DNA of 64,000 nucleotides from contig JBARRO010000139.1 in assembly GCA_049644265.1 (NCBI GenBank), forward strand, positions 5,462 through 69,461, in the 5' to 3' direction. The notes under the pieces were generated by a model that worked only from the letters and a program-made list of their open reading frames with translations, had not been told where the DNA came from and ran no database searches. This document shows positions 9,357-63,260 of the stretch, piece after piece. This DNA is from Bacteroidota bacterium. GTDB lineage: Bacteria > Bacteroidota > Ignavibacteria > UBA10030. Position numbers and translations under genes: made by a program. The first letter of the stretch is position 1. The number at the start of each line of letters is the position of its first letter.

Positions 9357-11992
9357 TAGCCAAGGCTCCGTGCGACGTTCACGACCAGTGAAAAATACGA
9401 CCCTAACGCGTATGTCGAATCATAGTAGAAGAACAGGGCACCCAGCAGCACGGCGCTTACAAGGACACCCCCCACATACACCTTTGCCGAGCTTAAGTCG
9501 TAGATAACGGAGACACCTTTGAGAATCCTGGAGAACGCCCAGAGCAAAAACACGAAGATCAGGACAAGAGAGGGAATGATGTAGAGTGGATTCTCCATGA
9601 CCTTGAACAGACTCATCGCCACGGGGCTGAGGAATATCAGCGGCATTGCACCCCAGACCGAGACGGTATAGGAATGATACCAGGAGATTTTTTTTCGAAT
9701 GAATACGGAACAAACCTTCACCAGCATTGCCAGAAGGCCAAACCCCACGAAGAAACACCCGGTAAAGGCCATAATTCCCGCCAGCGGATGCCAGGTTGCC
9801 CTGATAAACTGCTCCTTGAGCGAATCCCAAACGATGAAGTAGGTGAGCACATAGTCCGCAAACCTGTCCGCACGGTAATGATAGAGGATGCTCGACAGTA
9901 CGACCGCAAGCGTAATGGAAATTGAAAGAGCAAGCAGGAGTGTTTGAAACATCGACACGGAGTGATGGTCGCGAAGGTCGGCGAAGAAATTGTATGAACG
10001 CAGAAACGCACGCTTGATCGCCTCACCGAACCGGCGGTTGTAGGTGTACTGATACCCGACCAGAATGATCACAAACAGACCCGAGAGCACATGCGCGACG
10101 GGAAAGCTCGACCGATACGTGCCGATGGGAATGGCGTTGATTTTTTCTTCCGAGTAGAGCGCCCTGACCATTTCATACGATAACCTCTTTGCACGGTCAT
10201 AGCTCATCAGACCGACCGGGTGAACGTAGTGGTCTTCGATATTCACGTTCATGATCGGCCGGTCGCCTCGCCAGTCCGCGAACGACGATACAAAGCTGCC
10301 GGCGATCTTCAAATCCCTGATCGCGCCGTATTGCTGAAAGAAAAATCGTGCCTGAGCTTCCTGTGAGAGCGGGTCGCTGTATCCATTCCGGTTATTCTGG
10401 TCGACTTCCTTTCCATAGCTGAGCACAATCACCGGCTGGTTCGCGTGATCTTTTTTCCATTCGGACAAGAGCCGGCGAAAATTCTTCAGGTCGGCGGAAG
10501 GAAGGTTGATCGCAGCAAAGTCGACTTCCTTGGCGCACACATCGTTATAGACCATCCGTGAACCAAAATAGACGGGGCGTGCGTCGAGAGACCGCGCCAC
10601 GGCTGCAGCCTGCCGTACAAACGCGGCCGCGCGTTCATCCGCGGAGTCGAACTGGTCCCCGATTCCCCAGGCGAGCACAGCGGGGTTTTCCAGGTCGCGT
10701 TCAATCATTTCGCGTAGATAGGTGTCGGTGAGACTCTGGAAGGATTCGTCGGAGAGGATGTCGACCGGAGCGTTCCAGACGGGAACCTCTTCGAGTGCAA
10801 ACAATCCGTAGCGGGCGCAAAGGTCAATCATGTACGGATGCGGGGGATGGAACGCAAACCGCACTGCGTTGGCGCCGAGCGACTTCATCAGCACCACGTC
10901 TTTATCCATCTGTTCGTAGGTCAGGGAAGCTCCGACGCCCGGGTGGTCTTCGTGCCAGACAATGCCTTTCAGGGTCGCGGCAACACCGTTGACCTCGAAG
11001 GATTTGGCCCCGACGACCACATGGGAGAATCCGATGAGCCGGTCCATTTCATCGATGGCCAACTTTTGTTTACCCTCAACAGAGAAGATCGTCGCCCGGA
11101 GGAAATAGAGCTCGGGAGTTTCGGGACTCCACAGTCTCGGCTCGTTCATTGTCAACGAAGTCTCAACGTTGTGCTCCTTGTTCCGTTCGAGCGAGAGAGC
11201 GACCGGAAGCGATTGGGCAACGACGGCCTGCGACATCTTGTCTACCAATTCCAGACCCACCATATAGCTGACGTTCACAGGGCGGTTGTCCGAAGAGTCT
11301 TTCTTGAGTCCCTGGAACCCTCTGTTACTGATAACAGCGGATACGCGGATCGTGCCTACCTTCAGGTCCGTACTGACGGTGGGGAGTGCATGGAGCTCCG
11401 AGATCCATAATCGCGGCGTCACAAGAATGTACACATCGCGCAGAATCCCGCCGTAGTTTCTCCAACCCCAGACTTGTTTCCGCAACGGCAGCGTTGATCG
11501 TCCGTTGAGTCGATTGTCGACGACGATCTGAATGGAATTCTCCGGTCCAAGCTGCAACGCTTCGTCCGGGATATCGAACTCCGTTGTCGTGTATCCCCCG
11601 ACATGCTTCCCGATGAAGACATCGTTGACAAAAACTTCGCACTCATAGTTGATTCCGAACGCAACCAGACGAAACACGTGCGACTGAAGGAGCGATTCGT
11701 CCATCGTGAACTTCCGACGGAAGGTTACTTTTCCTTCAAAGTCGAGCGAGCTCGGGACCTTGAGTTCGCTCCATGTCTCTTTGTCCGTTGAGAATGTCCA
11801 GGTTCCGGCGAGGTCGATTTTCTCTCGCAGCGGTGTGTCGGGATAGATGCCGGCGTCCTGGCCCCTGAGCGTCGGCTGGCCATTTTCCAGAATCCGTTGT
11901 TGTGCAAAAACCGGGGTAATTAGAAATAATGCGGAGACAAGTGGAAGAAAAAGGCTGAAAATACGGGGGAAAATGTGAGGTTTTCTTGTCAA
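9356..11992 (-). CDS. Glycoside hydrolase family 2-like periplasmic domain fused to a C-terminal polytopic (about 8 TM) membrane domain
   Basis: 904-aa ORF. Probable TTG start at 11992 gives a signal peptide MTRKPHIFPRIFSLFLPLVSALFLITPVFA-QQ. GH2 sugar-binding and TIM-barrel regions are recognisable, followed by eight hydrophobic helices. Stop overlaps the smc start. Confidence 0.65.
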   Translation of the reverse strand: MTRKPHIFPRIFSLFLPLVSALFLITPVFAQQRILENGQPTLRGQDAGIYPDTPLREKIDLAGTWTFSTDKETWSELKVPSSLDFEGKVTFRRKFTMDESLLQSHVFRLVAFGINYECEVFVNDVFIGKHVGGYTTTEFDIPDEALQLGPENSIQIVVDNRLNGRSTLPLRKQVWGWRNYGGILRDVYILVTPRLWISELHALPTVSTDLKVGTIRVSAVISNRGFQGLKKDSSDNRPVNVSYMVGLELVDKMSQAVVAQSLPVALSLERNKEHNVETSLTMNEPRLWSPETPELYFLRATIFSVEGKQKLAIDEMDRLIGFSHVVVGAKSFEVNGVAATLKGIVWHEDHPGVGASLTYEQMDKDVVLMKSLGANAVRFAFHPPHPYMIDLCARYGLFALEEVPVWNAPVDILSDESFQSLTDTYLREMIERDLENPAVLAWGIGDQFDSADERAAAFVRQAAAVARSLDARPVYFGSRMVYNDVCAKEVDFAAINLPSADLKNFRRLLSEWKKDHANQPVIVLSYGKEVDQNNRNGYSDPLSQEAQARFFFQQYGAIRDLKIAGSFVSSFADWRGDRPIMNVNIEDHYVHPVGLMSYDRAKRLSYEMVRALYSEEKINAIPIGTYRSSFPVAHVLSGLFVIILVGYQYTYNRRFGEAIKRAFLRSYNFFADLRDHHSVSMFQTLLLALSISITLAVVLSSILYHYRADRFADYVLTYFIVWDSLKEQFIRATWHPLAGIMAFTGCFFVGFGLLAMLVKVCSVFIRKKISWYHSYTVSVWGAMPLIFLSPVAMSLFKVMENPLYIIPSLVLIFVFLLWAFSRILKGVSVIYDLSSAKVYVGGVLVSAVLLGALFFYYDSTYALGSYFSLVVNVARSLG

Positions 11993-12078
11993 TTCAGTTG
12001 AAGCAGGATGTGCGCCAAGAAGCTGTCGGAAAACCCGACAATACGCAGAATGACTCTGAATATAATACAAAAAGGAGG

Positions 12079-12107
12079 GGAAAGCAACGGAAAAGGGCGG
12101 TCTGACG
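12079..12107 (-). terminator. Putative rho-independent terminator downstream of tpiA
   Basis: Imperfect GC-rich stem (aagggcggtc / gaccgcccctt) followed on the minus strand by TTTTCC. Confidence 0.4.
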
Positions 12108-12204
12108 ACCGCCCCTTGAATTTAGGAAGCTGTAAAATGAAGAGATTAATGGAACTTGTGGATGCTCGATGTAATCCCGGGCGAGTTTTCTTCAAGCGCT
12201 GCAG

Positions 12205-12969
12205 CTACTCACCTGCTGCCGCCTTAATGATCGAGGCAAATGAGTCGGCCTTAAGGCAAGCGCCGCCTACGAGTGCGCCGTCGATGTCCGGCTGCTTCAT
12301 AAGGTCTGCGGCATTTTCCGGCTTGACGCTCCCGCCATACTGCAGGACGACTTTCTCTGCAACAATCCAGCCATACACCTGACCCACCTGCTTCCGGATG
12401 AATTGATGAACATCCTGTGCCTGCTGCGGCGTCGCGACTTTTCCGGTACCGATTGCCCAGACCGGCTCGTACGCGACGATCAGCCGTTCGACTTCCGGGG
12501 AAGCGAGCTCTTTCAGACACCCTCTCACCTGAACAGACACAACTTGTTCCGTGATGTTCCTTTCCCGCTCCTGAAGCGTCTCGCCAACACACACGATGGG
12601 GATCAAACCAGCAGCAATCGCCTTCTTCGCCTTCTTGTTGATGAGGTCGTTCGTCTCGCCAAAATACTGACGCCGCTCGGAGTGGCCAAGTATGACGTAG
12701 GCGCAGCCGGCTGACTTCAACATCTTTGAAGAAATTTCTCCAGTGAACGCGCCATCGTCTTCAACGTGCATGTTCTGCGCGCCGAGGGCGATCGGACTTC
12801 CCTCCAGAACCTTGTGGGCGAGGGAGAGAGACGTAAATGGCGGGCAGACGATCACCCGGGTTCCTTTGAGTGGGAAATTAAGCTTGGTTTTGAGATCATT
12901 CAAGAGTGCGGAGGATTCGCCAAGATCCTTGTACATTTTCCAGTTGCCGGCGATGATTTTGGGTCTCAT
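12205..12969 (-). CDS. tpiA: Triosephosphate isomerase
   Basis: 254 aa. Motifs IIAGNWKM, GHSERR, AYEPVWAIGTG. Confidence 0.95.
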   Translation of the reverse strand: MRPKIIAGNWKMYKDLGESSALLNDLKTKLNFPLKGTRVIVCPPFTSLSLAHKVLEGSPIALGAQNMHVEDDGAFTGEISSKMLKSAGCAYVILGHSERRQYFGETNDLINKKAKKAIAAGLIPIVCVGETLQERERNITEQVVSVQVRGCLKELASPEVERLIVAYEPVWAIGTGKVATPQQAQDVHQFIRKQVGQVYGWIVAEKVVLQYGGSVKPENAADLMKQPDIDGALVGGACLKADSFASIIKAAAGE

Positions 12970-12984
12970 GATGTCTTTGAGAGT

Positions 12985-13030
12985 CTATGAGTGGATGAGT
13001 AGATGAGTAGTGGAGTAGTGAAGAAAGAGA
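12985..13030. repeat. GAGTAGATGAG-type word repeat, left flank of the four-helix-bundle gene
   Basis: Sequence gagtggatgagtagatgagtagtggagtagtgaag. The same words occur reverse-complemented at 13395-13445. Confidence 0.6.
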
Positions 13031-13032
13031 TG

Positions 13033-13386
13033 CTATCTTAGCAACGATTTTTGTAGACCGTACAGCATCGCAATGATCTCATTGAACTGCTTGAGAATAT
13101 CTTGATAGGTTGCCTCCTGCATGAAATCATTTTCCAGAGCAATATCGAGGCAACCTACGCACTCGAAAGCGGAACGAATTGAGTAATCAAGAAAACGCGC
13201 GAATTCTTTTTTTGTCGTGTTTCCCGCACCTTCAGCAATATTCAGAACAATCGAATCCGTAGCCCTTTTGAATTGCGAGGTTAATACGAATAGTTCGTCT
13301 TTCGGGAATCTTCTTACTGTCTGCCTTACAACCTTTGTCATCGAAAGCGCTTTTCGATAGACATTTAGATCCTTGAATTTGTTCAT
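13033..13386 (-). CDS. Four-helix-bundle protein (23S rRNA intervening-sequence protein family, TIGR02436-like)
   Basis: 117 aa. Similar to the small Bacteroidetes/Leptospira four-helix-bundle proteins. Flanked by inverted word repeats. Confidence 0.7.
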   Translation of the reverse strand: MNKFKDLNVYRKALSMTKVVRQTVRRFPKDELFVLTSQFKRATDSIVLNIAEGAGNTTKKEFARFLDYSIRSAFECVGCLDIALENDFMQEATYQDILKQFNEIIAMLYGLQKSLLR

Positions 13387-13394
13387 GGAATCCC

Positions 13395-13445
13395 CCTTTT
13401 TTGGTTGATTTTACTCAACTACTCCATTACTTCACTACTTCTTCT
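13395..13445. repeat. Reverse-complement copy of the GAGTAGTGAAG word repeat, right flank of the four-helix-bundle gene
   Basis: Sequence ctcaactactccattacttcactacttcttctcc is the reverse complement of the words at 12985-13030. Confidence 0.6.
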
Positions 13446-14898
13446 CCCCCAACTTCCTCCTCAACACCTCATTCACCACCTTGGGATTAGCCTTCCCCTT
13501 CATCATCTTCATCGTCTCTCCCACGAAAAAGCCGAACAGATTCATCTTCCCTTCGTTGAATTTCTTCACCTGCTCCTGATTCCTGGAGAGGATTTCATCC
13601 ACGACTTTTTCGATTGCCGCCGTGTCGCTGACTTGCACAAGGCCAAGCTTCTGCACAATTGCTTTGGGGGATTCGGCCGTGTTGAGCATTTCCTCGAAGA
13701 CTTCTTTTGCAATCTTGCTGCTAATCGTCCCATCGACGAGGAGGTCGATCATTTCGGAGAGATACTTCGATGCAACCGGGAATTCTACAACTGCAACGCG
13801 GCGCTCTTTGACAACTCTCAGCACATCGCCCATCGTCCAGTTGCTGGCCAGCTTGAATGTTTCATCATTTTTCCTGCCCAAATGTTTCACCACACTCTCG
13901 AAGTAATCCGCCAGGTCTTTCTCCGCGGTCAAGATATCGGCGTCATACTTCGGAAGCTTGTATTCGCCGACATATCGATCCCTGCGGGCGGAGGGCAGTT
14001 CCGGCAGAGTTTTGCCTATTTCTTCTATCCATTCCCGTTCGACCAGGACGGGAACAAGGTCCGGCTCCGGGAAGTACCGGTAGTCGTGCGCCTCTTCTTT
14101 GGAACGCATGGAGACAGCAATTCCCTGACCCGCATCCCACAGCAGCGTCTCCTGCTCGATCGTTCCCCCACTCTCGAGCAGATCAATCTGGCGATTGATT
14201 TCGAACTCGAGCGCCCGCTCCACAAACCGGAATGAATTCATATTCTTGACTTCTGTCTTCACACCAAAGGTCGTCACTCCCTTCCTTCGGACCGAAACGT
14301 TCGCGTCACAGCGGAGACTTCCCTCCTCCATATTGCCATCGCAAATGCCGAGGTACGTCACCATCTGTCTGATTTTCGAAAGCGCATGTGCCGCCTCATG
14401 CGGCGACCGTATGTCCGGCTCGGTAACGATTTCGATGAGTGGAACACCGCAGCGATTCAAGTCAACGAGCGTGTCGACGTCAAGGTCGTGAATGGATTTG
14501 CCGGCATCTTCCTCCATATGAATGCGCGTGATGCCGATTGTCTTCTTCCTTCCATCCTCCGACTCAATCTCCAAAGAACCGTTGGAGCAAATCGGTTCTT
14601 CATACTGGGAGATCTGATAGCCCTTCGGCAGGTCAGGATAGAAGTAATTCTTTCGCGCGAAAATTGATTTGGGCGCTATCGTGCATCCCATGGAGAGTCC
14701 CAGCTTGATTGCAAACTCGACAACATTCTTATTGAGGACCGGCAGAACGCCCGGCATGCCGAGGCAAACGGGGCATACGTTGGAGTTCGGGTCGTTGCCA
14801 AATTTCGTCGAGCAGCTGCAGAATGCCTTGGAGGCCGTCAGGAGTTGGGCGTGAACTTCGAGGCCGATGACGGGTTCGTATGCGTCGTTCCAGGGCAT
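13435..14898 (-). CDS. gatB: Asp-tRNA(Asn)/Glu-tRNA(Gln) amidotransferase subunit B
   Basis: 487 aa. N-terminus [11 protein letters not shown], CxxC region and overall GatB-like sequence. Confidence 0.95.
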
Positions 14899-14948
14899 GA
14901 GGAAGTTGTTTGAATTGTTGGATGGTTGGTATCTTGAGAACGTCGGCT

Positions 14949-15518
14949 CTAGTGTCGGATGAGGTACCGTGCCCTTCCCTCCCGGACACGGAACCCGATT
15001 TGCCTGTCCACTTTCGGAGGGGAGCTCATAAGCTGACGAATGGCTTCCACGATAGCGATAATGTCATCATCGTGTCTCTTCACGTGCGATTCAAGAAGCC
15101 TCAGTTTGTCAGCAAGCTTTCGGTGCGTGGAAAGAAGCTCTCTCAGTTTCACAAAGGCACGCACGACGTACAGACTCGCTTCGATGGCTCTTCCTGAATT
15201 GAGGACGCTCGCGAGCATGATCGCCCCGTGCTCCGTGAAGGCATACGGAGGATATCGTCGCCCGCCACGACCCGTTTTTGAGGTTTCAAATTGAAACCTC
15301 AAAGCGGTACGGACAGCAGAGAACTCTCGTGGCGTAAGCCGAAACACCATGTCCGGAGGAAAACGGAGAGGGTTGCGCTTCACAGCGAGATTCAGAGACT
15401 TCGTGGGGACACCATACAGCTCAGCCAGATCGCGATCCAGCATGACTTTCTTTCCCCGAAGAACGAGAATTGCTTTCTGAATCCGCTCAACCGGGATGAG
15501 CACACGACGAACATTCAT
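14949..15518 (-). CDS. ORF6N (KilA-N-like) domain protein
   Basis: 189 aa. N-terminal ORF6N/KilA-N DNA-binding region and the C-terminal helical region typical of Bacteroidetes ORF6N paralogues. Sits alone between gatB and sucC with 50-bp and 22-bp gaps. Confidence 0.7.
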
Positions 15519-15540: not shown

Positions 15541-16704
15541 CTACGCGGCGATTGCCCTCGTAACTTTCTCTGCTGCTTCTTTGAGACTTCCCGCAACATC
15601 AAAGCTCAGGCCGGAGTTTTTCAGAATCTCCGCGGCGAGTTCGGCGTTCGTGCCAGCCAGCCTGATGACGATCGGAACGTGGACGTCAACCTTCTTTGCT
15701 GCTTCGACAACGCCCGTGGCAACACGGTCGCAGCGGACGATGCCGCCGAAAATGTTAATAAGAATCGCTTTCACGTGCGGATCTTTGAGAATGATCTTGA
15801 ATCCCGCTTCGACTGTCTGTGCACTCGCGCCTCCACCGACATCGAGAAAATTCGCCGGCATCCCTCCGGCAAGCTTGATGATGTCCATCGTCCCCATCGC
15901 CAGACCAGCCCCGTTGACCATGCAGCCGACATTTCCGTCGAGCTTGATGTAGTTCAGATTCGACGCGGACGCCTCGACCTCAAGCGGGTCCTCCTCATCG
16001 AGGTCCCGCAGCGACGCATAATCGGGATGACGGTAGAGCGCATTGTCGTCAAAGTTGATTTTGGCATCCAGGGCGATCACATTACCCTCCTTGGTAATGA
16101 CCAGCGGATTGATTTCCGCCAACGATGCATCCGTTGCTTCGTACGCTTTGTAGAGCGCCAGGAGGAATTTCACGCCGTTCTTGAAGGCATCCCCCGTCAA
16201 TCCAAGGCCAAAGCAGAGCGACCGCGCCTGGAATTGCTGCATGCCGACTCCCGGTTGCACGTATTCTTTGAGGATCTTTTCCGGAGTCTCAGCTGCCACT
16301 TTCTCTATCTCAACGCCACCCTCGGTAGAAGCCATGACCACGTTTTGCGAGCGAGCACGGTCAAGCGTCACGCCGACGTACAGCTCCCTGGCAATGTTCA
16401 TTCCCTGTTCGATGAGCAGACGCTTGACGATCCTGCCTTCAGGGCCTGTTTGATGCGTCACGAGCCGCATTCCCAAAATTTCCGTCGCGCGCGACCGGAC
16501 TTCGTCGAGACTGCGCGCCAGTTTCACGCCGCCGCCTTTTCCGCGACCCCCCGCGTGGATCTGGGCTTTCACAACCCAGACTTGTCCTCCGACTTTTTCA
16601 GCCGCCTTGACCGCTTCATCGACGGTGAACGCGACTTCACCTTTAGGCACGGGGACGTTGTATTTTTTGAGGATTTCTTTGCCCTGGTATTCGTGGATTT
16701 TCAT
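15541..16704 (-). CDS. sucC: Succinate--CoA ligase (ADP-forming) beta subunit
   Basis: 387 aa. [13 protein letters not shown]-terminus, ATP-grasp domain and CoA-ligase domain. Confidence 0.95.
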
Positions 16705-16705
16705 G

Positions 16706-16800
16706 GAGATTTAAGAGTTTAAAGTTTCTAGTTTAAAGTTTAGGGTTTGAGAGCTGAGGGCTGAGGTTTGGCGAGCACTACTTTAGTTTTGAGTTTGCAG
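16706..16800. repeat. GAGTTTA-period word array
   Basis: Sequence gagatttaagagtttaaagtttctagtttaaagtttagggtttgagagctgagggctgaggtttgg with a 7-nt period. Confidence 0.6.
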
Positions 16801-23458: not shown

Positions 23459-23773
23459 GAGAGTGATAAGGTTTAATAAGGAGTATTCAGTTCGTTGGAT
23501 ATTGGGTGTTGGTTATTGAGTGTTGGACATTGAAAAAGATTCAATTTCCAATAACGAATGTTTGGGAGTTGGGCATTGAAAAAAGACTCAACATCCAATA
23601 GCATCGTCCGATGTCCAATTACCAAGGAGTAAGACCTTGAGAGTTGATCATTGGGAGTTGGAAATTGAAAGCTGAAAGATTCAAATTCCAATACCCAACA
23701 ATCAACATCCAACGTTCAAGGGAACACACCTTGGACATTGGAAATTGGCTATTGGAGATTGGACATTGAATCT
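23459..23773. repeat. Cluster of TTGGA(C/A)ATTGA...TCAAT(G/T)TCCAA hairpin repeats
   Basis: At least five imperfect inverted-repeat units (for example ttggaaattgaa-agctgaaaga-ttcaaattccaa) fill the whole 315-bp gap between ampG and the spoIID-like gene. Confidence 0.7.
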
Positions 23774-25103: not shown

Positions 25104-25172
25104 GGGAGTTTCTAGTTTCTAGTTTCTGGTTTCTGGTTTAGAGTTTAGAGTTTAGAGTTTCTAGTTTCTGCG
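25104..25172. repeat. GAGTTTC/TAGTTTC heptamer array
   Basis: Sequence gagtttctagtttctagtttctggtttctggtttagagtttagagtttagagtttctagtttctg. Confidence 0.7.
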
Positions 25173-25203: not shown

Positions 25204-26175
25204 TCATTCAGCCCTTGCGATCTTCTGCATATCGTCGTCCTCGATGGTTACCTCACGAAAGATCGCTTCGACCATCTTTGCGTCCAGACTTCGAAAATCC
25301 TTTTCGCGGGGAGTGACGATGAGTCCGCCGATGTCGACAGCAGCCGGACTGATCAGGACCTGCTTATCACCCTTCTTGAAGTACACTTCGGGTCGGTGTT
25401 TTCGACGCGGGAATACAATGAGCCGCCACAAACGGCCGGTGCAGGAACAAAGGACATTCATCATTGGCTCTTCAACCGTTCCAAAAGCGTGTTTCCACAC
25501 CTTCAGAAGATTCAAGAACGAGTTTTCGAGTTCGGATTGGTCCTTCGACTCCAGCACAACGACTTGTCGGCCATAGTTTTGGAGCAAGAACTTCGAAACA
25601 GATCCCTTGTTTTTCAACAGAACCCGTCGCTTCGGATCCAGCGCTTCTTTTTCCACCGGTATTGCTCCGGAAGGACTCGCCTGAAAATGCATATGGTCTG
25701 GGGCGGAGGCCCCACATCGAGGCCCGTTGTAGAAAACTGTGAAGCCCGGACTCAGGTCTTTCGCCAGGTTCAAAAACGTGTGAACGAACGGCTCGAGCGA
25801 CTGCGGTATATGCGCGAGATTGGAAATCGTATAGTGTTGCCTGAAGATTGGAGCCGGATTGCAGAGGACGAGAAAATCCTCCCCGTACAATATCCCCTGC
25901 TGCTCTTTGGGCAGGTTTTCGACACACAGAAAGCAGGGCCGCGCTTCGATCGACTTCGCATCTACCTTTGCGCCGGTGCTGACAATCCTGCCAGGATTCC
26001 ATTGGAGCCACGCCGAGAATCCCGTGCACTGAATTTCACGGATCTGGATCTTTTCCAAGGAAGCGTAGCCCGCGGCGAGCGTTTTCCACGATCGCTTCTG
26101 TTGCTCGAGCAACTGGAGCGATAGCGAACTCAGACTCGCACCACCACGACGAAATGTTTTGAAGAGCTTATCCAC
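25204..26175 (-). CDS. HIT-superfamily GalT-like protein (HxHxQ motif), DUF4922-like
   Basis: 323 aa, GTG start. Contains HMHFQ (GalT/Ap4A-phosphorylase-branch HIT motif) and a CFLC pair. Family assignment is from memory. Confidence 0.5.
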   Translation of the reverse strand: MDKLFKTFRRGGASLSSLSLQLLEQQKRSWKTLAAGYASLEKIQIREIQCTGFSAWLQWNPGRIVSTGAKVDAKSIEARPCFLCVENLPKEQQGILYGEDFLVLCNPAPIFRQHYTISNLAHIPQSLEPFVHTFLNLAKDLSPGFTVFYNGPRCGASAPDHMHFQASPSGAIPVEKEALDPKRRVLLKNKGSVSKFLLQNYGRQVVVLESKDQSELENSFLNLLKVWKHAFGTVEEPMMNVLCSCTGRLWRLIVFPRRKHRPEVYFKKGDKQVLISPAAVDIGGLIVTPREKDFRSLDAKMVEAIFREVTIEDDDMQKIARAE

Positions 26176-26291
26176 GAAGAAATACCACGAAGGTCACTAA
26201 GGACACAAAGGAAAGAAATAATATTGAGAGAGAATCGTTGGACCGATTTCGAATAAAACCCTTAGTGTTCTTCGTGTCCTTCGTGGTTCAC
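26172..26291. repeat. CACGAAGG / CCTTCGTG word repeats arranged as an inverted pair
   Basis: ccacgaaggtcactaaggacacaaagg...aatattgag at the left, and cccttagtgttcttcgtgtccttcgtgg at the right. Confidence 0.65.
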
Positions 26292-26803
26292 TTTCCTTTC
26301 TTGACAGACTGAACCGGAACATACCCAATATAGTGGTTGACCTTCGTGGAGCCCATGGTGAAGGGCTCTTCTTCTGCGACCTGGAATCCCATACCCTTAT
26401 ACCAATCCACCGCCGAGCGGTTTTCCACCATCACTCCCAGCCAGATTCTATCCAACCCATGTGAGACAGCTTCGTCGGCAGCCATCACCATGAGTGTTCG
26501 CCCGATGCCCTTGCTTTGAAACTCCGGAAGTATATAAAGGGAGGAAACATAATGCCGTTCTTCTTCTTTGTTGAACTTTGTACGTACAAATCCGGCAACG
26601 GTGCCTTCGGCTTCTGCCACAAATCCGTTCACCGTCGGGTCCGCGAAGAGTTTCTTCATCGACGCTTCGTCGTAGGTTTTTTCGAGATAAGATGTGAGGT
26701 CGGATTCCGGAATGAACGAATACGCATCGAGCCATGTCTTCCGGAGAATTTCGCGGATGGGGGACAGGTCTCGTTCCTGCCATCGGCGGTACGTGATGGT
26801 CAT
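26288..26803 (-). CDS. GNAT family N-acetyltransferase
   Basis: 171 aa. Acetyl-CoA-binding motif QSKGIGRTLM and a GNAT fold. Confidence 0.8.
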   Translation of the reverse strand: MTITYRRWQERDLSPIREILRKTWLDAYSFIPESDLTSYLEKTYDEASMKKLFADPTVNGFVAEAEGTVAGFVRTKFNKEEERHYVSSLYILPEFQSKGIGRTLMVMAADEAVSHGLDRIWLGVMVENRSAVDWYKGMGFQVAEEEPFTMGSTKVNHYIGYVPVQSVKKGK

Positions 26804-29334: not shown

Positions 29335-29430
29335 AAAGGGGGCAGGGTAGGTTAGTTGGTTGACTGGTTAATTGGTTATTGGTTGATTGATGGGTTTTTT
29401 GCTGGCTACTCACCAACTAACTCCTCACCA
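29335..29430. repeat. GGTTAATTGG word array that is self-complementary
   Basis: ggttagttggttgactggttaattggttattggttgattg is followed by ctcaccaactaactcctcaccacttacc, its imperfect reverse complement. Lies in the divergent 270-bp gap between the kinase gene and tlpA. Confidence 0.65.
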
Positions 29431-31879: not shown

Positions 31880-31965
31880 CGGGGTGGGAGAGTCTGTGAG
31901 TCTATGAGTAGATGAGAAGAAGTGGTTTCTGGTTTGAGGTTTCTTGTTTCAGATTGCCGACTTTG
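31880..31965. repeat. GAGTCTATGAGTAGATGAG word array followed by a GGTTTCT array
   Basis: gggtgggagagtctgtgagtctatgagtagatgagaagaagtggtttctggtttgaggtttcttgtttcag. Confidence 0.6.
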
Positions 31966-34322: not shown

Positions 34323-34361
34323 AGGGAGTTATCAGCAGTCAGCGTTCAGTTGTCAGGAGAG

Positions 34362-34396
34362 CCGCCGGTGTGAGAACATCGGCGGCTTTCTTTTTC
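34362..34396 (+). terminator. Rho-independent terminator
   Basis: Stem gccgccggtg-tgagaaca-tcggcggc followed by TTTCTTTTT. Confidence 0.75.
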
Positions 34397-34549
34397 CACG
34401 AAGTACTATGAGCTACCACGAAGGACACTAAGAACACGAAGAGAATATTGAGTATGAATCATGAATCCCGGCGGCTTTCTTTTTCCACGAAGCACTATGA
34501 ACTACCGCGAAGGACACGAAGAGAATATTGAGTGTGTGCCTTGAATCCC
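34381..34549. repeat. Approximately 85-bp tandem direct duplication
   Basis: Copy 1 is 34381-34468 and copy 2 is 34470-34549. They share cggcggctttctttttccacgaag.actatga.ctacc.cgaaggacac...gaagagaatattgagt and include the 3' arm of the terminator and CACGAAGG words. Confidence 0.8.
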
Positions 34550-34620
34550 TGAAATCACTCAACGACTCACGGACTCATAGACTGTAGACTCATCTACTCC
34601 ACTACTCACTTCGTTCCCGC
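34540..34620. repeat. CTCATCTACTC-type word array (reverse orientation of the GAGTAGATGAG family)
   Basis: cactcaacgactcacggactcatagactgtagactcatctactccactactcacttc. Confidence 0.6.
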
Positions 34621-34646
34621 CTCAATTATTCATATATTAGTCCACC

Positions 34647-36751: not shown

Positions 36752-36900
36752 AGGAAGGTAGATGTGAGATGTGTGATTTGAGTTTCGAGTTTGAAGTTTG
36801 GAGTTTGAAGTTCAAGGTTTAAAGGTGTTGCCAGTTTACCAGTCTCCAGTAACCAGTTCACGGTTCACTATTCACGATTCACTATTCACCACTCATTGCT
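36752..36900. repeat. Composite intergenic element (GAGATGT)n-(GAGTTTN)n-AAGTTCAAGGTTTAAAGGTG-core-(TTCACTA)n
   Basis: Shares an approximately 60-nt core with 56241-56300, and shares architecture with 41312-41511 and inverted 49015-49140. Confidence 0.75.
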
Positions 36901-41311: not shown

Positions 41312-41511
41312 GATGGGAGAGGTGAGATGTAAGATGTGGGATGTAAGAAGTGAGATGTGAGTTTCGAGTTTTCGGTTCTGAGTTTAGAGTTCAAAGTTCA
41401 GGTTACACTCTACCTATCACTTTTCGCTTTTCATTTTTCACTGTTCACTGTTTGCTTTTCACCTTTCACTTTTCGCTTTTCACTGTTTACAGTTCACCAT
41501 CCGCGAGCATC
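41312..41511. repeat. Composite intergenic element (GAGATGT)n-(GAGTTT)n-AGTTCAAAGTTCAGGTT-(TTTTCAC)n
   Basis: Same architecture as 36752-36900. Occupies the spurious 5' extension of ORF 41357-42127. Confidence 0.75.
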
Positions 41512-46964: not shown

Positions 46965-47050
46965 GGGAGTTGAGGAGTAGTGAGTAGACGAGTGGAGGAG
47001 TCTATGAGTCGATGAGTCTATGAGTCGATGAGTAGATGAGCCTCTAAGTA
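46965..47050. repeat. GAGTAGATGAGTC octamer array
   Basis: gaggagtagtgagtagacgagtggaggagtctatgagtcgatgagtctatgagtcgatgagtagatgag. Confidence 0.7.
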
Positions 47051-49014: not shown

Positions 49015-49140
49015 GTGAATCATGAGTGAAAAGTGAAAGGTGAATAGTTAGAGCGTATATCGCACTTTGAACATTGAACTTTAAACTCGAAACTTCAAAC
49101 TCTAAACTCCAAACTATCTCCCACCTTACCCTCGCCCCAA
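49015..49140. repeat. Composite element in inverted orientation: (GTGAA)n...(AAACTC)n
   Basis: gtgaaaagtgaaaggtgaatag...gaactttaaactcgaaacttcaaactctaaactccaaact is the reverse complement of the 36752/56187 architecture. Confidence 0.7.
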
Positions 49141-53119: not shown

Positions 53120-53611
53120 TTATTCATCGACATTGACTTCAAACCTGACAACTTCAAACCCCTTGAGTGTATCGAGCACGCCAAAGACGACGCCGAAAAA
53201 CATCGTCACCATGCCTGTCAGGAACGAAGCGATGATGAAGTACCGGATGGGGAGCACGTTCACAAAGAAGTCGAGGCCGATTAACAACGAAGTGACTACA
53301 AAGAGACCGACGGCAAGAAAATAGCAGAACAAGGAGTTCCGCACAAGCCGTGCCCGGGAGAGGAGGCGTCCGATCTGCTTCGTGATACTTTCCAAACGCT
53401 GATTGTCGGCCGTTTGCAGCTCCTGTTTTCCGGCCTGATGGAGCAGCTTTCGTTTCTCTTCGTTGAGGATCCGAATCCGGTTGAGGATGGTGGAAAACTT
53501 GCTGCTGATGCCGAGGAGGAGAAGTCCGCACGCGCTGATCATGACTGCAGGAGCCAGAATCAGCTGGATAACCTGAATGACGGTGATATGATCGCTCAGT
53601 GATTGATTCAC
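53120..53611 (-). CDS. DUF2721 family membrane protein
   Basis: 163 aa, GTG start, three to four TM helices and a central amphipathic helix, as in DUF2721. Confidence 0.6.
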   Translation of the reverse strand: MNQSLSDHITVIQVIQLILAPAVMISACGLLLLGISSKFSTILNRIRILNEEKRKLLHQAGKQELQTADNQRLESITKQIGRLLSRARLVRNSLFCYFLAVGLFVVTSLLIGLDFFVNVLPIRYFIIASFLTGMVTMFFGVVFGVLDTLKGFEVVRFEVNVDE

Positions 53612-53614
53612 GAA

Positions 53615-53800
53615 TGTGTCAAATTAGGGAACACGAATGAACCGAATGCAACGAATCACACGAACGAGATATTAGTTTGTGAGTTTGTATGATTCGTGTC
53701 ATTCGCACGATTCGTGCAATTCGTGTTCCACGTATGGAACGAATGCCACAAATTAGACGAATAAGAAATTGGTTTGTGAGATTCGTGTTTCATCCTTCAA
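53615..53800. repeat. ACGAAT / ATTCGT word repeats forming a long imperfect hairpin
   Basis: Left arm ggaacacgaatgaaccgaatgcaacgaatcacacgaacg. Right arm gattcgtgtcattcgcacgattcgtgcaattcgtgttcc. Also tttgtgagtttgtatgattcgtg and ttggtttgtgagattcgtg. Confidence 0.7.
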
Positions 53801-56186: not shown

Positions 56187-56345
56187 GAAGAAGAGGTTTC
56201 GAGTTTGGAGTTTAAAGTTTCAAGTTCAAGGTTCAAAGATCAAGGTTTAAGGTGGTTCCCAGTTGCCAGATAACCGTTCACTGTTCACTTATCGCTTTTC
56301 ACTTTTCGCTTCTCACTATTCACTCTTCACTATTTACTTCTTCCT
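56187..56345. repeat. Composite element (GAGTTT)n-AAGTTCAAGGTTCAAAG-core-(TTCACT)n
   Basis: Core ggtttaaggtggttcccagttgccagataaccgttcactgttcac is nearly identical to 36826-36880. Confidence 0.75.
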
Positions 56346-59443: not shown

Positions 59444-59482
59444 TCTTCGAGTTCTTCCCGACTCAACCCATTCTACTAAGCA

Positions 59483-59538
59483 AGACTCCCGGAATACTTC
59501 TCAGCGAGATTCCGGGAGTCTTTCTTGTCTCTTTTTCC
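59483..59538 (+). terminator. Rho-independent terminator; stem shared with the valS terminator
   Basis: agactcccggaat-13 nt-attccgggagtct followed by ttcttgtctctttttcc. Confidence 0.75.
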
Positions 59539-59545
59539 CGGTTAT

Positions 59546-59745
59546 ACTCTTCGTGCACTTCGTGTCCTTCGTGGTTTGATTACCTCCAAGATTTTTCGTT
59601 AATTATCCTCGTGGGACGGGTAGCTTTAGGGCTACCTTTTTAGTTTCAGTTGGGAGTTGGATATTGGGTGTTGGGCGTTGAAGAGAGATTCAATTTCCAA
59701 TGGTCAATTACCAATTTCCAATATCCAATGTTGAAGAAAAAGATC
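59546..59745. repeat. CACTTCGTGTCCTTCGTGG element plus TTGGATATTGG...TTCAATTTCCAA hairpin-repeat cluster
   Basis: cttcgtgcacttcgtgtccttcgtggtttg, then gggagttggatattgggtgttgggcgttgaagagagattcaatttccaatggtcaattaccaatttccaatatccaatg. Confidence 0.65.
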
Positions 59746-59772: not shown

Positions 59773-62496
59773 ATGCAGGAACTTTCAAAAACATACAACC
59801 CCAAAGAAGTCGAAGACCGGTGGTATCAGTACTGGGAGTCGAACCGGCTTTTCCATGCAACAGTGAATCCGGCGAAGAAACCGTACACCGTCGTCATTCC
59901 TCCTCCCAATGTTACCGGGATTCTCCATATCGGACACATCCTCAACAACACCATCCAGGACATCCTGGTGCGGTGGAAGCGGATGCAGGGATTTGAGGCG
60001 TGTTGGATTCCAGGGACCGACCACGCAGGCATCGCGACGCAGAATTCCGTCGAGAAAGCCCTTGCAAAGGAAGGGATCGACCGCCACAAGCTCGGACGCG
60101 AGAAGTTTGTCGAGCGGGTCTGGAAATGGAAGGAACAGTACGGCGGGACCATTATCCGGCAATTGCGGAAGATCGGGGCTTCCTGCGACTGGGAGCGCGA
60201 ACGCTTCACTCTGGATGAGGGCCTTTCAAAGGCCGTGAACGAAGTGTTTGTCCGGTTGTACGAAAAGGGATTGATTTATCGCGGCAAGTATATCGTCAAC
60301 TGGTGCCCATTCCACCAGACTGCGCTGAGCGACGATGAGGTAGAAAACAAACCGACGACCGGCAATCTCTATTTCATCAAATACGCAATCGAAGGATCAA
60401 CCGAGGTTGCGGTGGTTGCCACGACGAGGCCGGAGACGATTCTCGGAGACACGGCAGTATGCGTCAATCCGAAAGACGAGCGCTACAAACACCTCGTCGG
60501 GAAGACCGCTATCCTTCCCATCGTCGGCCGCAAACTCCCGATCATCGCCGACGATTACATCGATTCTTCGTTTGCGACCGGCATGATGAAGGTGACACCC
60601 GCCCATGACCCGAACGACTTTTTCCTCGGGCAGCGTCATAATCTTCCCCAGCTGAACATCTTCGATGAAACGGCGCACCTCAATGAATCAGTACCGAAGC
60701 AGTATGAAGGGATGGACAGGTTCAAGTGCCGGAAGCAGATTGTTCAAGACCTCGAAGCGTCCGGAAATATCGTGAAGATCGATCGTTACGACCACAACAT
60801 CGGGCACTGCTACCGGTGCGAGACGGTCATCGAACCGTACTTGTCCGACCAGTGGTTTGTGAAAATGAAACCGCTTGCCGGAGCTGCCTTGCGCGTGGTT
60901 CATGGCGGAAAGATCCGGTTTCATCCGAAGCGATGGGAAAAGGTGTATGAAAACTGGATGATGAACATCCGCGACTGGTGCATTTCGCGGCAGATTTGGT
61001 GGGGGCATCGAATTCCCGTTTGGTATTGTCTTGGCGAGGCTCGGAAGCCCGAGTGCACAAACCCGATCGTCGCGAGGGCGCTGCCGGATCGATGCCCGCA
61101 TTGCGGCTCCACGAAGCTGCGGCAGGATGAAGACGTGCTCGACACATGGTTCTCATCGTGGCTCTGGCCGTTCTCCACGCTCGGCTGGCCGGAGAACACA
61201 CCGGACCTCCGCTATTTCAACCCTACGGATACGCTGGTCACTGCACCGGAGATTATTTTCTTCTGGGTTGCGCGCATGGTCATGGCCAACATGGAATTCA
61301 TGAAAGGCCTCCCCGGCCGCGACGGGAAACCGCGGAAGAACGACGACGACCTCGTGCCGTTCACCGACGTGTATTTCACGAGCATCATCCGAGATCTCCA
61401 GGGGCGCAAGATGAGCAAGTCTTTGGGGAACTCACCCGATCCCCTGGATGTGATCGATGAGTACGGCGCCGACGCGCTTCGCTTCACGGTGGCTTACCTG
61501 GCTCCACTTGGCCAGGATGTTCTTTTCGCCACGGAGAAATGCGAAATCGGCAGGAACTTCGCCAATAAGATCTGGAATGCCGGCAGATTCCTTCTGATGA
61601 ACAAGGCCGAGATCTGCGGAGCGGGCGATGTGAATCTCGATTCATTGCCGACGGGGAATCTGGATCTCGCCGACAAGTGGATCCTTTCCCGACTGAACCA
61701 TGCGATCCGGGATTTCAATGAGTCGCTGACTGAATTCCGTATCAACGAGACCAGCAAAATTCTTTACGACTTCATCTGGCACGATTTCTGCGACTGGTAT
61801 ATAGAGCTTGCCAAAACCCGGTTTTATGGAGACGAATCTGCGGATATTAAGGAGGAAGTAATCACGCGTGCGCTTTGGATCTTCGACCAGGCTCTTCGGA
61901 TGCTGCATCCCGTGATGCCGTTTGTGACCGAGGAATTATGGCAACACCTAACCGGACGGAACGGCGCCAGCCTTGTGCGGGCCGCGTTTCCGACTCACCA
62001 GGATACGCTGATCGATGAGAAGACCGAACGGGAGATGAATTTTGTGCAGGCAGTCATTGACTCCATTCGGAACATCCGCGGAGAGAACAGTATCCCGCCT
62101 TCAAAGGGAATCAACCTGCAAATACGGCTCTCCGACGGTCAGAAATCGACCGTGTTTCAAACATACGAGAGTTATCTGAAAAAATTGGCACGGGTGGAAG
62201 CAATTCAGTTCCTCCAGGGAAGCGCAAAACCAAAGCTCGCTTCAAGCGCTGTTGTCGAAGGCGCCGAAATCTTTGTCCCGCTTGAAGGACTGATCGATAT
62301 CGAAGCTGAGCGCAAGCGACTGGAGAAGGAGATTGCACGGCTTCAGCAGTTGGTAGATGGAATTGAGAAGAAGCTTGCGAACGCTCAGTTTGTAGAGCGT
62401 GCGCCGAAAGAAGTGGTGGAAAAGGAGAGGGAGAAACAGCTCAATATGAAATCGAATATTGAGAAATTGAAGAAGAATCTGGAGCTTATTTCCTAA
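59773..62496 (+). CDS. valS: Valine--tRNA ligase
   Basis: 907 aa. HIGH (PPPNVTGILHIGH), KMSKS, and a C-terminal coiled coil. Confidence 0.97.
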   Translation: MQELSKTYNPKEVEDRWYQYWESNRLFHATVNPAKKPYTVVIPPPNVTGILHIGHILNNTIQDILVRWKRMQGFEACWIPGTDHAGIATQNSVEKALAKEGIDRHKLGREKFVERVWKWKEQYGGTIIRQLRKIGASCDWERERFTLDEGLSKAVNEVFVRLYEKGLIYRGKYIVNWCPFHQTALSDDEVENKPTTGNLYFIKYAIEGSTEVAVVATTRPETILGDTAVCVNPKDERYKHLVGKTAILPIVGRKLPIIADDYIDSSFATGMMKVTPAHDPNDFFLGQRHNLPQLNIFDETAHLNESVPKQYEGMDRFKCRKQIVQDLEASGNIVKIDRYDHNIGHCYRCETVIEPYLSDQWFVKMKPLAGAALRVVHGGKIRFHPKRWEKVYENWMMNIRDWCISRQIWWGHRIPVWYCLGEARKPECTNPIVARALPDRCPHCGSTKLRQDEDVLDTWFSSWLWPFSTLGWPENTPDLRYFNPTDTLVTAPEIIFFWVARMVMANMEFMKGLPGRDGKPRKNDDDLVPFTDVYFTSIIRDLQGRKMSKSLGNSPDPLDVIDEYGADALRFTVAYLAPLGQDVLFATEKCEIGRNFANKIWNAGRFLLMNKAEICGAGDVNLDSLPTGNLDLADKWILSRLNHAIRDFNESLTEFRINETSKILYDFIWHDFCDWYIELAKTRFYGDESADIKEEVITRALWIFDQALRMLHPVMPFVTEELWQHLTGRNGASLVRAAFPTHQDTLIDEKTEREMNFVQAVIDSIRNIRGENSIPPSKGINLQIRLSDGQKSTVFQTYESYLKKLARVEAIQFLQGSAKPKLASSAVVEGAEIFVPLEGLIDIEAERKRLEKEIARLQQLVDGIEKKLANAQFVERAPKEVVEKEREKQLNMKSNIEKLKKNLELIS

Positions 62497-62508
62497 GATT
62501 CCTTAGAG

Positions 62509-62583
62509 AGACTCCCGGAATCTCTCCCGGTCCAAACAAGGCAAGATTCCGGGAGTCTTTCCAGGATTTCCGGGAGTCTTTTG
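62509..62583 (+). terminator. Terminator hairpin using the same 13-bp stem as 59483-59521, followed by a partial third copy
   Basis: agactcccggaat-24 nt-attccgggagtct ttcc agg atttccgggagtcttttg. Confidence 0.65.
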
Positions 62584-62990: not shown

Positions 62991-63120
62991 CTGGTTACTT
63001 GGTTAATTGGTTGATTGGTAGCTCGTCAATTGGTGACTGGAAAATTGGTTAATTGATAGGTTTGTTAGTGACCACTTACCGATTAACAACTCACCTCTCA
63101 CCAATTAACCCCACCAAAAG
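62991..63120. repeat. GGTTAATTGG word array, self-complementary (long imperfect hairpin)
   Basis: ctggttacttggttaattggttgattgg...ccgattaacaactcacctctcaccaattaacc. Same family as 29335-29430. Confidence 0.7.
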
Positions 63121-63169
63121 TTGAAGCACGGCGCCTGCCTGCCGGTAGGCAGGGGCAAGCATTCAGGAT

Positions 63170-63250
63170 TTCCATCATTCATCTTCCCTCTCCATCACCT
63201 CATACACATTTCGCATTACTCATTGCACATTGCTCATTACTCATTGTCCA
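63170..63250. repeat. CATTGCTCATTACTCATTG word array
   Basis: cgcattactcattgcacattgctcattactcattgtccattgaatcc. Same family as 16838-16925. Confidence 0.6.
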
Positions 63251-63260
63251 TTGAATCCCC

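Follow-up and report, generated by a model that had tools for sequence, protein, structure and literature searches.

The closest described relatives of the element reported here are the intervening sequences (IVSs) of 23S rRNA, in particular that of Coxiella burnetii, an insertion of 428–444 nt with a 28-bp terminal stem and, in the loop, a sense open reading frame (ORF) for an S23p protein; this insertion is cut out by RNase III and considered selfish (PMC4990558). Where rRNA insertions have been catalogued, the protein family is listed only within rRNA (PMC11270868), and 18 genes of the family found in cas loci have been read as possible cas-associated functions, with flanking repeats unmentioned (PMC3936711). 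Tandem arrays of 7-nt words in intergenic regions have been described separately, including 70–75 cases of convergent inverted array pairs in Xanthomonas (PMC4692102), and the papers on these arrays make no mention of the PF05635 family (PMC4692102, PMC4679880). Here we analyze a gene for an S23p/PF05635 protein, denoted IVP, that is located between gatB and tpiA and is bracketed by inverted arrays of short tandem words. The gene belongs to a 64,000-nt stretch of DNA, hereafter the window, from a Bacteroidota bacterium (Ignavibacteria, UBA10030; assembly GCA_049644265.1, contig JBARRO010000139.1, positions 5,462–69,461).

To our knowledge, S23p-bearing IVSs have since 1993 been regarded as curiosities confined to 23S rRNA, and we know of no role for the "four helix bundle protein" genes that are scattered across the genomes of Bacteroidota, cyanobacteria, and others. 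In the open-access literature, we found no paper linking the family to flanking tandem arrays or to stem-bracketed cassettes in operon spacers. Judging from sequence comparison, what appears to be new is the operon-spacer form of a known kind of IVS. The ORF and the two arrays behave as a unit in inheritance, duplication, loss, and exchange, and we consider it probable that this unit is an IVS-type selfish gene cassette residing in the spacer of a housekeeping operon and transcribed by the host, with arms that would form a long stem, probably cut by RNase III.

Joint inheritance of the IVP gene and its flanking arrays

The IVP ORF (13033–13386, minus strand) encodes a four-helix-bundle protein of 117 amino acids that was assigned to PF05635/TIGR02436 with Pfam, NCBIfam, and a structure model. 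It is on the same strand as the upstream host gene, gatB (13435–14898; Pfam GatB_N and GatB_Yqey), and the downstream host gene, tpiA (12205–12969; Pfam TIM, E 1e-98), and the cassette, measured from gatB to tpiA, is 465 nt long. On the coding strand, the unit consists of a purine-rich tandem array of 7–8-nt words, a Shine-Dalgarno (SD) motif, the IVP ORF, and a complementary pyrimidine-rich array. The 5' arm (13408–13450, minus strand), detected by Tandem Repeats Finder (TRF), as an arm of inverted repeat I1 and in the RNA fold, is a purine/G-rich tandem array of 8-nt words (GAGAAGAAGTAGTGAAGTAATGGAGTAGTTGAGTAAAA on the coding strand), for which TRF reports 3.5 copies of the reverse-complement word TACTCCAC with a period of 8 (13412–13439) in the 48-nt gatB-side spacer. 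The 3' arm (12985–13032, minus strand), likewise found by TRF and as an I1 arm, as well as in the duplex, is pyrimidine/C-rich (CTTCACTACTCCACTACTCATCTACTCATCCACTCATAG on the coding strand), includes four tandem copies of the 8-nt word ATGAGTAG (12987–13018, TRF) in the 63-nt tpiA-side spacer, and ends ~15 nt short of the tpiA start codon. The gatB-side words extend into the last gatB codons, so that the gatB stop codon (TAG, 13435–13437) lies inside the array. The leader within the loop (13387–13407, minus strand, read from the sequence) consists of an A-rich linker and a strong SD, GGGGGA at 13391–13396, 4 nt ahead of the IVP ATG; related cassettes also have GGAGG or GGGAGG ahead of the ATG, and neither tpiA nor gatB is preceded by such a motif. 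The best inverted pair, 12998–13026/13411–13439, spans 29 nt with 76% complementarity, confirming, together with the family assignment, the initial annotation of an IVP-family gene flanked by inverted words between tpiA and gatB. That annotation placed the words ~3 nt from the gene on the left, in agreement with an array ending ~3–7 nt from the stop codon; the 9 nt given for the right side should read ~25 nt from the ATG, 13387–13410 being the A-rich linker plus the SD.

Within the window, the pairing of the two flanks stands out by several measures. The word GAGTAGTGAAG, with at most one mismatch, occurs five times against 0.49 expected; only 2–3 of 2000 mononucleotide shuffles of both spacers match the observed complementarity; and, among genes with two spacers, the IVP gene has the best ungapped inverted score (11.5, the others reaching no more than 9). 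In the RNA fold, the minimum free energy (MFE) and centroid structures both pair the flanks around the entire ORF (z = -2.8), the flank duplex (13450–13389/13032–12988) comprising 37 bp at -36.3 kcal/mol. Counting against the case as seen in the window alone, 3% of random pairs of window spacers match the same ungapped score, because most window spacers hold word arrays. By itself, the window lends moderate support, too weak to decide, and given that its word pool is general, the case had to be decided by comparison across genomes.

For this comparison, we used 80 loci from a scan with TpiA, restricted to one genome per species, in which the nearest are Ignavibacteriota metagenome-assembled genomes with at most 77% identity, and 79 further loci from a metagenome scan with the IVP protein; the comparison loci are denoted L with a number. 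About 45 of the 79 metagenome-scan loci represent the same gatB|tpiA site, and the other sites are FtsA|FtsZ, SecA|P-II (glnB), x|MurC, x|sucC, sucC|tpiA, and a position beside an ORF6N gene. The IVP gene is co-oriented with both neighbors in 48 of 70 loci, that is, 48 of the 58 in which both neighbors are callable. The word families vary by locus, for example, GAGTAGTG, GAGCCGAT, GAGATTAT, GAGTCTAT, CAGATTGCAGAC, CAGTAGTCAGTA, AAGTATTGAGTA, and GAAGTCCG, but, despite this variation, the arms match each other at every locus, the upstream one, as read on the coding strand, being purine/G-rich. Counted over 100 nt on each side in 73 non-redundant Ignavibacteriota loci, 507 7-mers are common to the two flanks in inverted orientation versus 25 in direct orientation, and the mean flank duplex energy is -49.5 kcal/mol for cognate flanks versus -36.5 for non-cognate and -33.2 for shuffled ones. 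When entire cassettes are folded, the MFE structure joins the two flanks by 15 or more base pairs in 83% of 72 loci (mean 29 bp); with a foreign 3' flank supplied instead, the value is 57% (mean 16 bp). Among genes with two spacers, 76% of the IVP genes share at least three inverted 7-mers between the flanks versus 14% of the other genes, several of which are neighbors bordering a cassette. At the level of sequence, array bracketing is a property of the IVP gene across the Ignavibacteriota loci. A secondary insertion was observed in two secA|IVP|glnB loci (L123, 2990–3900, and L125), where an IS3-type insertion sequence (OrfA, HTH_Tnp_1) located ~20 nt past the IVP stop splits the ORF from the 3' array; the sister locus L126 is intact.

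The order sucC-gatB-tpiA, followed by a gene for a 904-aa protein, is kept in ~40 of the 80 TpiA-scan loci. Seven of these 80 loci (L002, L004, L005, L007, L008, L012, and L018) carry an IVP gene between gatB and tpiA, and in more than 20 (e.g., L003, L010, L013, L016, and L019), the gene is missing and the gap measures 7–170 nt. In the gatB+tpiA tree, the absences in L003, L010, L013, and L006 are nested among carriers. Sister genomes lacking the gene are mostly array-free at this site (L010, L013, L014, and L022), and what is missing from L003 is exactly the ORF with its upstream array. Decaying forms exist as well. At gatB|tpiA in L039 (4440–4860), there is a frameshifted IVP remnant with a ~110-nt internal deletion and well-kept arrays, and an intact second copy with near-identical flanks is found upstream of sucC on the same contig, the flanks of the two copies being more conserved than the ORF. 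L009 contains an ORF-less hairpin that is colinear with the window cassette minus the ORF (array, leader fragment GGATTC, trailer ATCTCTT, array; alignment score 78.5, where shuffles score 30 ± 6 and at most 50). In a sister clade (L015, L020, L026, L030, L037, and others), the gatB|tpiA spacer is filled by a gene for a ~306-aa tandem-Usp protein that starts 1–3 nt past the gatB stop, with no word arrays.

The arrays travel with the gene. The IVP protein tree is incongruent with the host tree, and host and IVP distances are uncorrelated (Spearman rho 0.08), whereas array similarity follows IVP distance when the host is controlled for (partial Mantel p 0.009; Spearman -0.55 among close hosts). 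Three pairs of loci illustrate the exchange: in L097/L138, gatB and tpiA are 95% identical versus 62% for IVP, and the words differ; the corresponding host and IVP values are 91% versus 67% for L002/L106 and 92% versus 62% for L092/L145. The alignment of L097 with L138 stays at ~95% up to the gatB stop, collapses over array, ORF, and array, and recovers ~25 nt before the tpiA ATG, such that the break points of the swap are the outer ends of the arrays. The same boundaries are seen in duplicates: copies within one genome (L039 and L119) are homologous over array, leader, ORF, and array, with the homology stopping at the array ends, and within-genome paralogs with homologous flanks are also represented by L093 and L157. 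Because the loci are related by descent, the p-values overstate their independence, and the argument instead draws on 15 or more distinct insertion sites, no fewer than 8 word families, and four phyla.

Beyond the Ignavibacteriota, a tblastn search of plasmids yielded 25 records, mostly cyanobacterial, and 15 loci were examined. In 12 of the 15, a purine-rich heptamer array is located upstream of the IVP gene and its complement downstream, with word pairs such as (GGGAGTA)n/(TACTCCC)n, (TCAGGAG)n/CTCCTGA, GGAGATAA/TTATCTCC, and GGGAAAA/TTTTCCC. Altogether, the 15 loci share 142 inverted versus 32 direct 6-mers, with a mean of 9.5 shared by cognate versus 2.5 by non-cognate flanks. The sites are inside operons, namely, cas6|cas4 (twice), cmr2|cmr3, parA|parB, nrdB/nrdA, and a conjugation operon; in the conserved conjugation operon of related Nostoc plasmids, the gene occupies different spacers in L169/L171 and in L172, with TCAGGAG and GGGAAAA words, respectively. 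The Azospirillum copy lies within large subunit (LSU) rRNA (Rfam RF02541) and is accordingly a classical IVS, with stem arms that likewise consist of tandem 7-nt words, the purine arm being on the 5' side. In Mucilaginibacter, the IVP gene is found between genes for an N-carbamoylputrescine amidase-like protein and agmatine deiminase, with (GTCCGAAA)n upstream and the complement downstream, and two viral contigs have the same layout. In Xanthomonas campestris, a GGGAATC array lies 6 nt past bccP and abuts XCC0516 (PMC4692102 supplement), the gene for the protein crystallized as 2GSC. The layout is shared by four phyla and a true 23S rRNA IVS. Two variations of it deserve mention: in the Mucilaginibacter loci L176, L179, and L180, the 3' array is ~40–80 nt past the IVP stop, within the annotated 5' end of the agmatine deiminase gene, the annotated start of which is probably too far upstream; and in the viral contig L182 (IMGVR_UViG_3300014208_001117), the inverted arrays, ATAACTA/TAGTTAT, have the reversed G/C polarity, with the G-poor arm upstream.

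The suggestion in the initial annotation that this is a minimal insertion cassette with a selfish or mobile lifestyle is supported by the comparative data: many relatives have gatB and tpiA adjacent without the cassette, or with only the remnant or the ORF-less hairpin described above, and paralogs elsewhere have the same kind of flanks, homologous within a genome. The opposite possibility that it raised, a locus conserved in all relatives with flanks drawn, unpaired, from the general word pool, is right only in its last part: the flanks do belong to that pool, but they pair, and the locus is not conserved throughout. The statement that no mobilization mechanism is known still holds, and the target-site duplication it proposed to look for was not found (see below).

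The cassette as a proposed host-transcribed element

The IVP protein matches PF05635 over its full length (E 5e-30, 104.3 bits, cutoff 33.8) and TIGR02436 with 98 bits (cutoff 24). Among solved structures, it matches 2GSC (XCC0516) in sequence (E 1.6e-9) and is also related to 2RLD (BT_0352). The AlphaFold monomer model consists of four helices (pLDDT 94.7) and superimposes with TM scores of 0.94 on 2GSC, 0.81–0.83 on 2RLD, and 0.78 on Avd (4DWL); the match to the Avd model NF033474 (E 6e-6, 26.6 bits) is far under the equivalog cutoff of 80. A family motif, GxxRxxxSxxxNxxE, has been described (PMC3936711), and IVP carries its RxxxSxxxNxxE part (R41-ATD-S45-IVL-N49-IA-E52), with Q38 in place of the leading G. 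Among 35 homologs, S45, N49, and E52 are invariant and R41 nearly so. The ratio of nonsynonymous to synonymous substitution rates (dN/dS) among close relatives is 0.05–0.11, indicating strong purifying selection and hence a functional protein. A role as a HEPN-like RNase was considered and dropped because the invariant His is lacking. No PADLOC model covers IVP, and a look-up of exact proteins retrieved a single short extra contig for IVP and none for tpiA. This four-helix bundle is the sole ORF of the cassette, and no transposase is encoded or associated at the locus.

Given the likeness to S23p-bearing rRNA IVSs, we infer a scheme of read-through, stem formation, and RNase III cleavage for the operon cassette. 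The cassette, presumably without a promoter of its own, would depend on read-through transcription of the sucC-gatB-tpiA unit; a scan of the minus strand from sucC to tpiA detected neither a sigma-70-like promoter nor an intrinsic terminator, with the sigma-70 model, the only one used, possibly misfitting this phylum. In the transcript, the arrays would pair into an imperfect stem of ~30–40 bp around the ORF, and RNase III, by analogy with rRNA IVSs, would cut this stem. The cut would free a translatable IVP mRNA with the SD exposed in the loop and would separate the gatB and tpiA messages, so that, we propose, the insertion does the host little harm. The upstream array might also stop translation of the upstream gene in any frame, given a period that is not divisible by 3 and the presence of TAG, TGA, or TAA in the words. 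Stop codons in all three frames are present in 64% of the upstream arrays versus 35 ± 5% of shuffles, the downstream arrays showing no enrichment, and the gatB stop codon is itself provided by the array in the window as well as in L097/L138. Spread and replacement may occur through recombination within the arrays, which is the least-supported step of the scheme and is proposed because the tpiA-proximal word, ATAGACTTA, is kept whatever the cassette lineage, and some arrays are mosaics of word families. Pairing of the arms as an RNA stem, which we infer from sequence complementarity, is consistent with the more stable folding of the sense than of the antisense strand in 53 of 73 loci (p 9e-4).

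Several observations weigh against this interpretation. The sense strand has only a slight advantage, in loci that share ancestry and with flanks that contain some sequence outside the arrays; in the arms, G:U-compatible mismatches number 69 versus 55 for A:C (p 0.24), with no significant RNA-level bias. Non-cognate arms pair fairly well, all families being purine-rich versus pyrimidine-rich, and several Ignavibacteriota loci show no long-range stem. On plasmids, the arrays of L162 (Pseudanabaena galeata, cas6|IVP|cas4) are direct, (GCTAAAA)n and (GCCAAAA)n, and arrays are not clearly recognizable in L163 and L165. Window spacers without an IVP gene commonly contain word arrays as well, so some of the arm sequence may be host-derived, in line with the retention of only the tpiA-proximal array in L003. 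No recombinase was found, and no target-site duplication was seen in filled/empty (L002/L103 versus L003) or swapped (L097 versus L138) pairs, where short duplications could be hidden because the ends are repeats.

An alternative is a DNA-level element resembling REPIN/RAYT systems, in which the arrays are the ends and IVP recognizes, maintains, or helps mobilize them, an explanation that we consider rather unlikely. In such an element, IVP may act as a putative pentameric ring on ~5 tandem words, and the ORF-less arrays and hairpins may be non-autonomous derivatives or targets. Each IVP lineage has its own word family; GAGTAG-type words recur at three other window spacers (31890–31916, 34564–34608, and 46967–47040); the L009 hairpin is an ORF-less derivative; and no heptamer arrays in a complete 49.7-kb Geminocystis plasmid are stronger than the two on either side of the IVP gene. 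Array density outside the cassette is 11.1 nt/kb in gene-carrying loci versus 2.2 (p 0.011), a correlation uncorrected for phylogeny. The taxa with heptamer arrays (Nostoc, Xanthomonas, and some Bacteroidota; PMC4692102, PMC4679880) are those that yielded the IVP family here, the G:U test gave no strand-specific RNA signal, and Avd, a relative of IVP, is a pentamer in an RNA-protein complex (PDB 8UBE). Against a REPIN/RAYT-like element, neither a catalytic motif nor the fold of a nuclease or recombinase is known in IVP, a target-site duplication was not found, most window word families (GAGTTT, TTGGAC, CACGAAGG, and others) have no cognate gene in the 64 kb, which contain one IVP copy, and co-orientation with the host operons is not demanded by the model. 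A broader version, to which we would assign a similarly low likelihood, unites the PF05635 genes and the tandem 7–9-nt arrays in one cross-phylum element system, with a putative pentamer reading runs of cognate words, the cassettes as autonomous members, the intergenic arrays and hairpins (STRR, short tandemly repeated repetitive sequences; GGGAATC; the window pool) as ORF-less derivatives or landing pads, the rRNA IVSs as a special case, and the Avd of diversity-generating retroelements (DGRs) as a domesticated relative.

It is quite improbable that IVP is an autoregulated RNA-binding regulator that binds tandem words in 5' leaders genome-wide, in the manner proposed for an unidentified factor at the TAACTGA repeats, its own arrays being feedback sites rather than ends. 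The strong conservation of IVP, the RNA-associated pentamer Avd within the family, and the arrays that immediately precede many start codons, both in the window and in Beggiatoaceae (PMC4679880), would all suit a regulator; cassette swapping, presence and absence, pseudogenes, and residence in rRNA would be left unexplained, the word families are too diverse for one regulator, and the 64 kb contain only one copy. The very improbable notion that only host features are involved, a G-rich gatB trailer and a C-rich, G-poor tpiA leader forming a spacer hairpin with the IVP gene merely in the loop, can draw on the arrays in most window spacers, several of which hold an array with its inverse, on the excess of C over G in the 40 nt ahead of start codons (16 of 22 co-directional spacers), on the tpiA-proximal array kept in L003 without the gene, and on the constancy of the tpiA-proximal word across cassette lineages, but is already largely refuted by the swapping of arrays along with the ORF between near-identical hosts, by paralogs at separate sites of one genome that share both arrays, and by word families that follow the IVP lineage and not the host; mostly array-free sister genomes without the gene and recurrence of the layout in an rRNA IVS and in phyla and replicons otherwise poor in arrays also count against it.

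If the module populates the spacers of essential operons in several phyla (fts, sec, gatB-tpiA, acc, nrd, par, and cas) and is exchanged whole, these genes would be hitchhiking cassettes rather than pathway members, and the reading of such gene neighborhoods would change. It would also connect, in a testable way, to another long-standing puzzle, namely, where intergenic heptamer arrays (STRR and similar) come from and what they do, and it predicts RNase III-dependent processing of operons at defined sites in culturable organisms.

Other features of the window

The minus-strand order around the cassette is sucC (15541–16704), an ORF6N (KilA-N-type) gene (14949–15518), gatB, the IVP ORF, and tpiA, and Rfam gave no rRNA match at 11500–15500. 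The ORF6N gene is missing from the position between sucC and gatB in most relatives and is thus a second accessory insertion in the same operon; its product matches the PADLOC candidate defense family PDC-S05 (E 2e-45), and the insertion has no word-array flanks.

Nearly every spacer of the window contains degenerate tandem arrays with a period of 7–9 nt, representing ~8 word families. Examples are the spacers at 16710–16766, 23494–23533, 25107–25169, 26172–26299, 29350–29420, 36760–36889, and 41312–41498, and further ones are at 46967–47040, 49025–49115, 53609–53729, 56196–56339, 59648–59730, and 62992–63253; where an array and its own inverse share a spacer, they make up a long imperfect hairpin. 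Two other clear long-range inverted pairs, 31896/34564 and 54865/56280, came out of a noisy k-mer scan and were rejected as cassettes; they enclose a histidine kinase gene and an FAA hydrolase gene. The idea that the upstream words generally mimic an SD or form G-quadruplexes was likewise dropped, most word families having neither GGAG nor runs of G. Upstream of one GAGTAG-family array and a 73-aa ORF, at 34323–34646, there is a ~95-nt direct duplication (CGGCGGCTTTCTTTTTCCACGAAG...GAATATTGAGT). A separate, non-tandem repeat class is formed by GACTCCCGGAAT-type palindromes at 59482–59522 and 62496–62579, on both sides of a gene for a 907-aa protein (59773–62496).

Relation to described systems

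MITEs (miniature transposable elements with inverted repeats) and small cargo transposons resemble the cassette in their inverted ends, variable presence, and ORF-less derivatives, and differ from it in that neither a transposase nor a target-site duplication was found here and, in place of defined terminal inverted repeats, the cassette has degenerate tandem arrays at its ends. DGR Avd proteins share the fold (TM 0.78 to 4DWL) and a distant sequence kinship with IVP, whose score of 26.6 bits falls far short of the cutoff of 80; among the four products scanned (tpiA, IVP, gatB, and ORF6N), there is no reverse transcriptase, the template repeat and variable target not having been searched for.

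Similar to the cassette arms, the intergenic heptamer arrays (cyanobacterial STRR, Xanthomonas GGGAATC, Nostoc GGGGAYT, and Beggiatoaceae TAACTGA) consist of tandem 7-nt words in spacers, often immediately upstream of start codons, and one Xanthomonas array abuts XCC0516, but most of these arrays have no adjacent PF05635 gene. With REPIN/RAYT, the cassette shares a single small gene between inverted short repeats that are also dispersed intergenically, as well as the matching of lineage and repeat. The differences are that RAYT is an HUH/Y1 transposase, whereas IVP is a four-helix bundle without a known catalytic site; that the repeats are tandem 7–9-nt words rather than a 20–25-nt palindrome; and that RAYTs are largely vertically inherited, whereas the cassettes are swapped between close relatives.

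The 23S rRNA IVSs with S23p ORFs (Leptospira, Coxiella burnetii, Brucella, and Azospirillum) differ from the cassette in location, which here is between protein genes of an operon and not in an rRNA helix, with no rRNA found by Rfam. They also differ in the state of the ORF: the one here follows a strong SD and evolves under purifying selection, and that of Coxiella is decaying and apparently untranslated. RNase III cutting is known for the Coxiella IVS and is predicted here from sequence. In other respects, the two correspond: the protein family is identical, the size is similar (428–444 nt in Coxiella and 465 nt here), the complementary termini would yield a stem of ~28–37 bp, the ORF is in the loop, sense to a highly expressed host transcript, the distribution is sporadic with ORF-less variants (PMC4990558, PMC11270868), and even the arms of the Azospirillum IVS consist of tandem words, of 7 nt.

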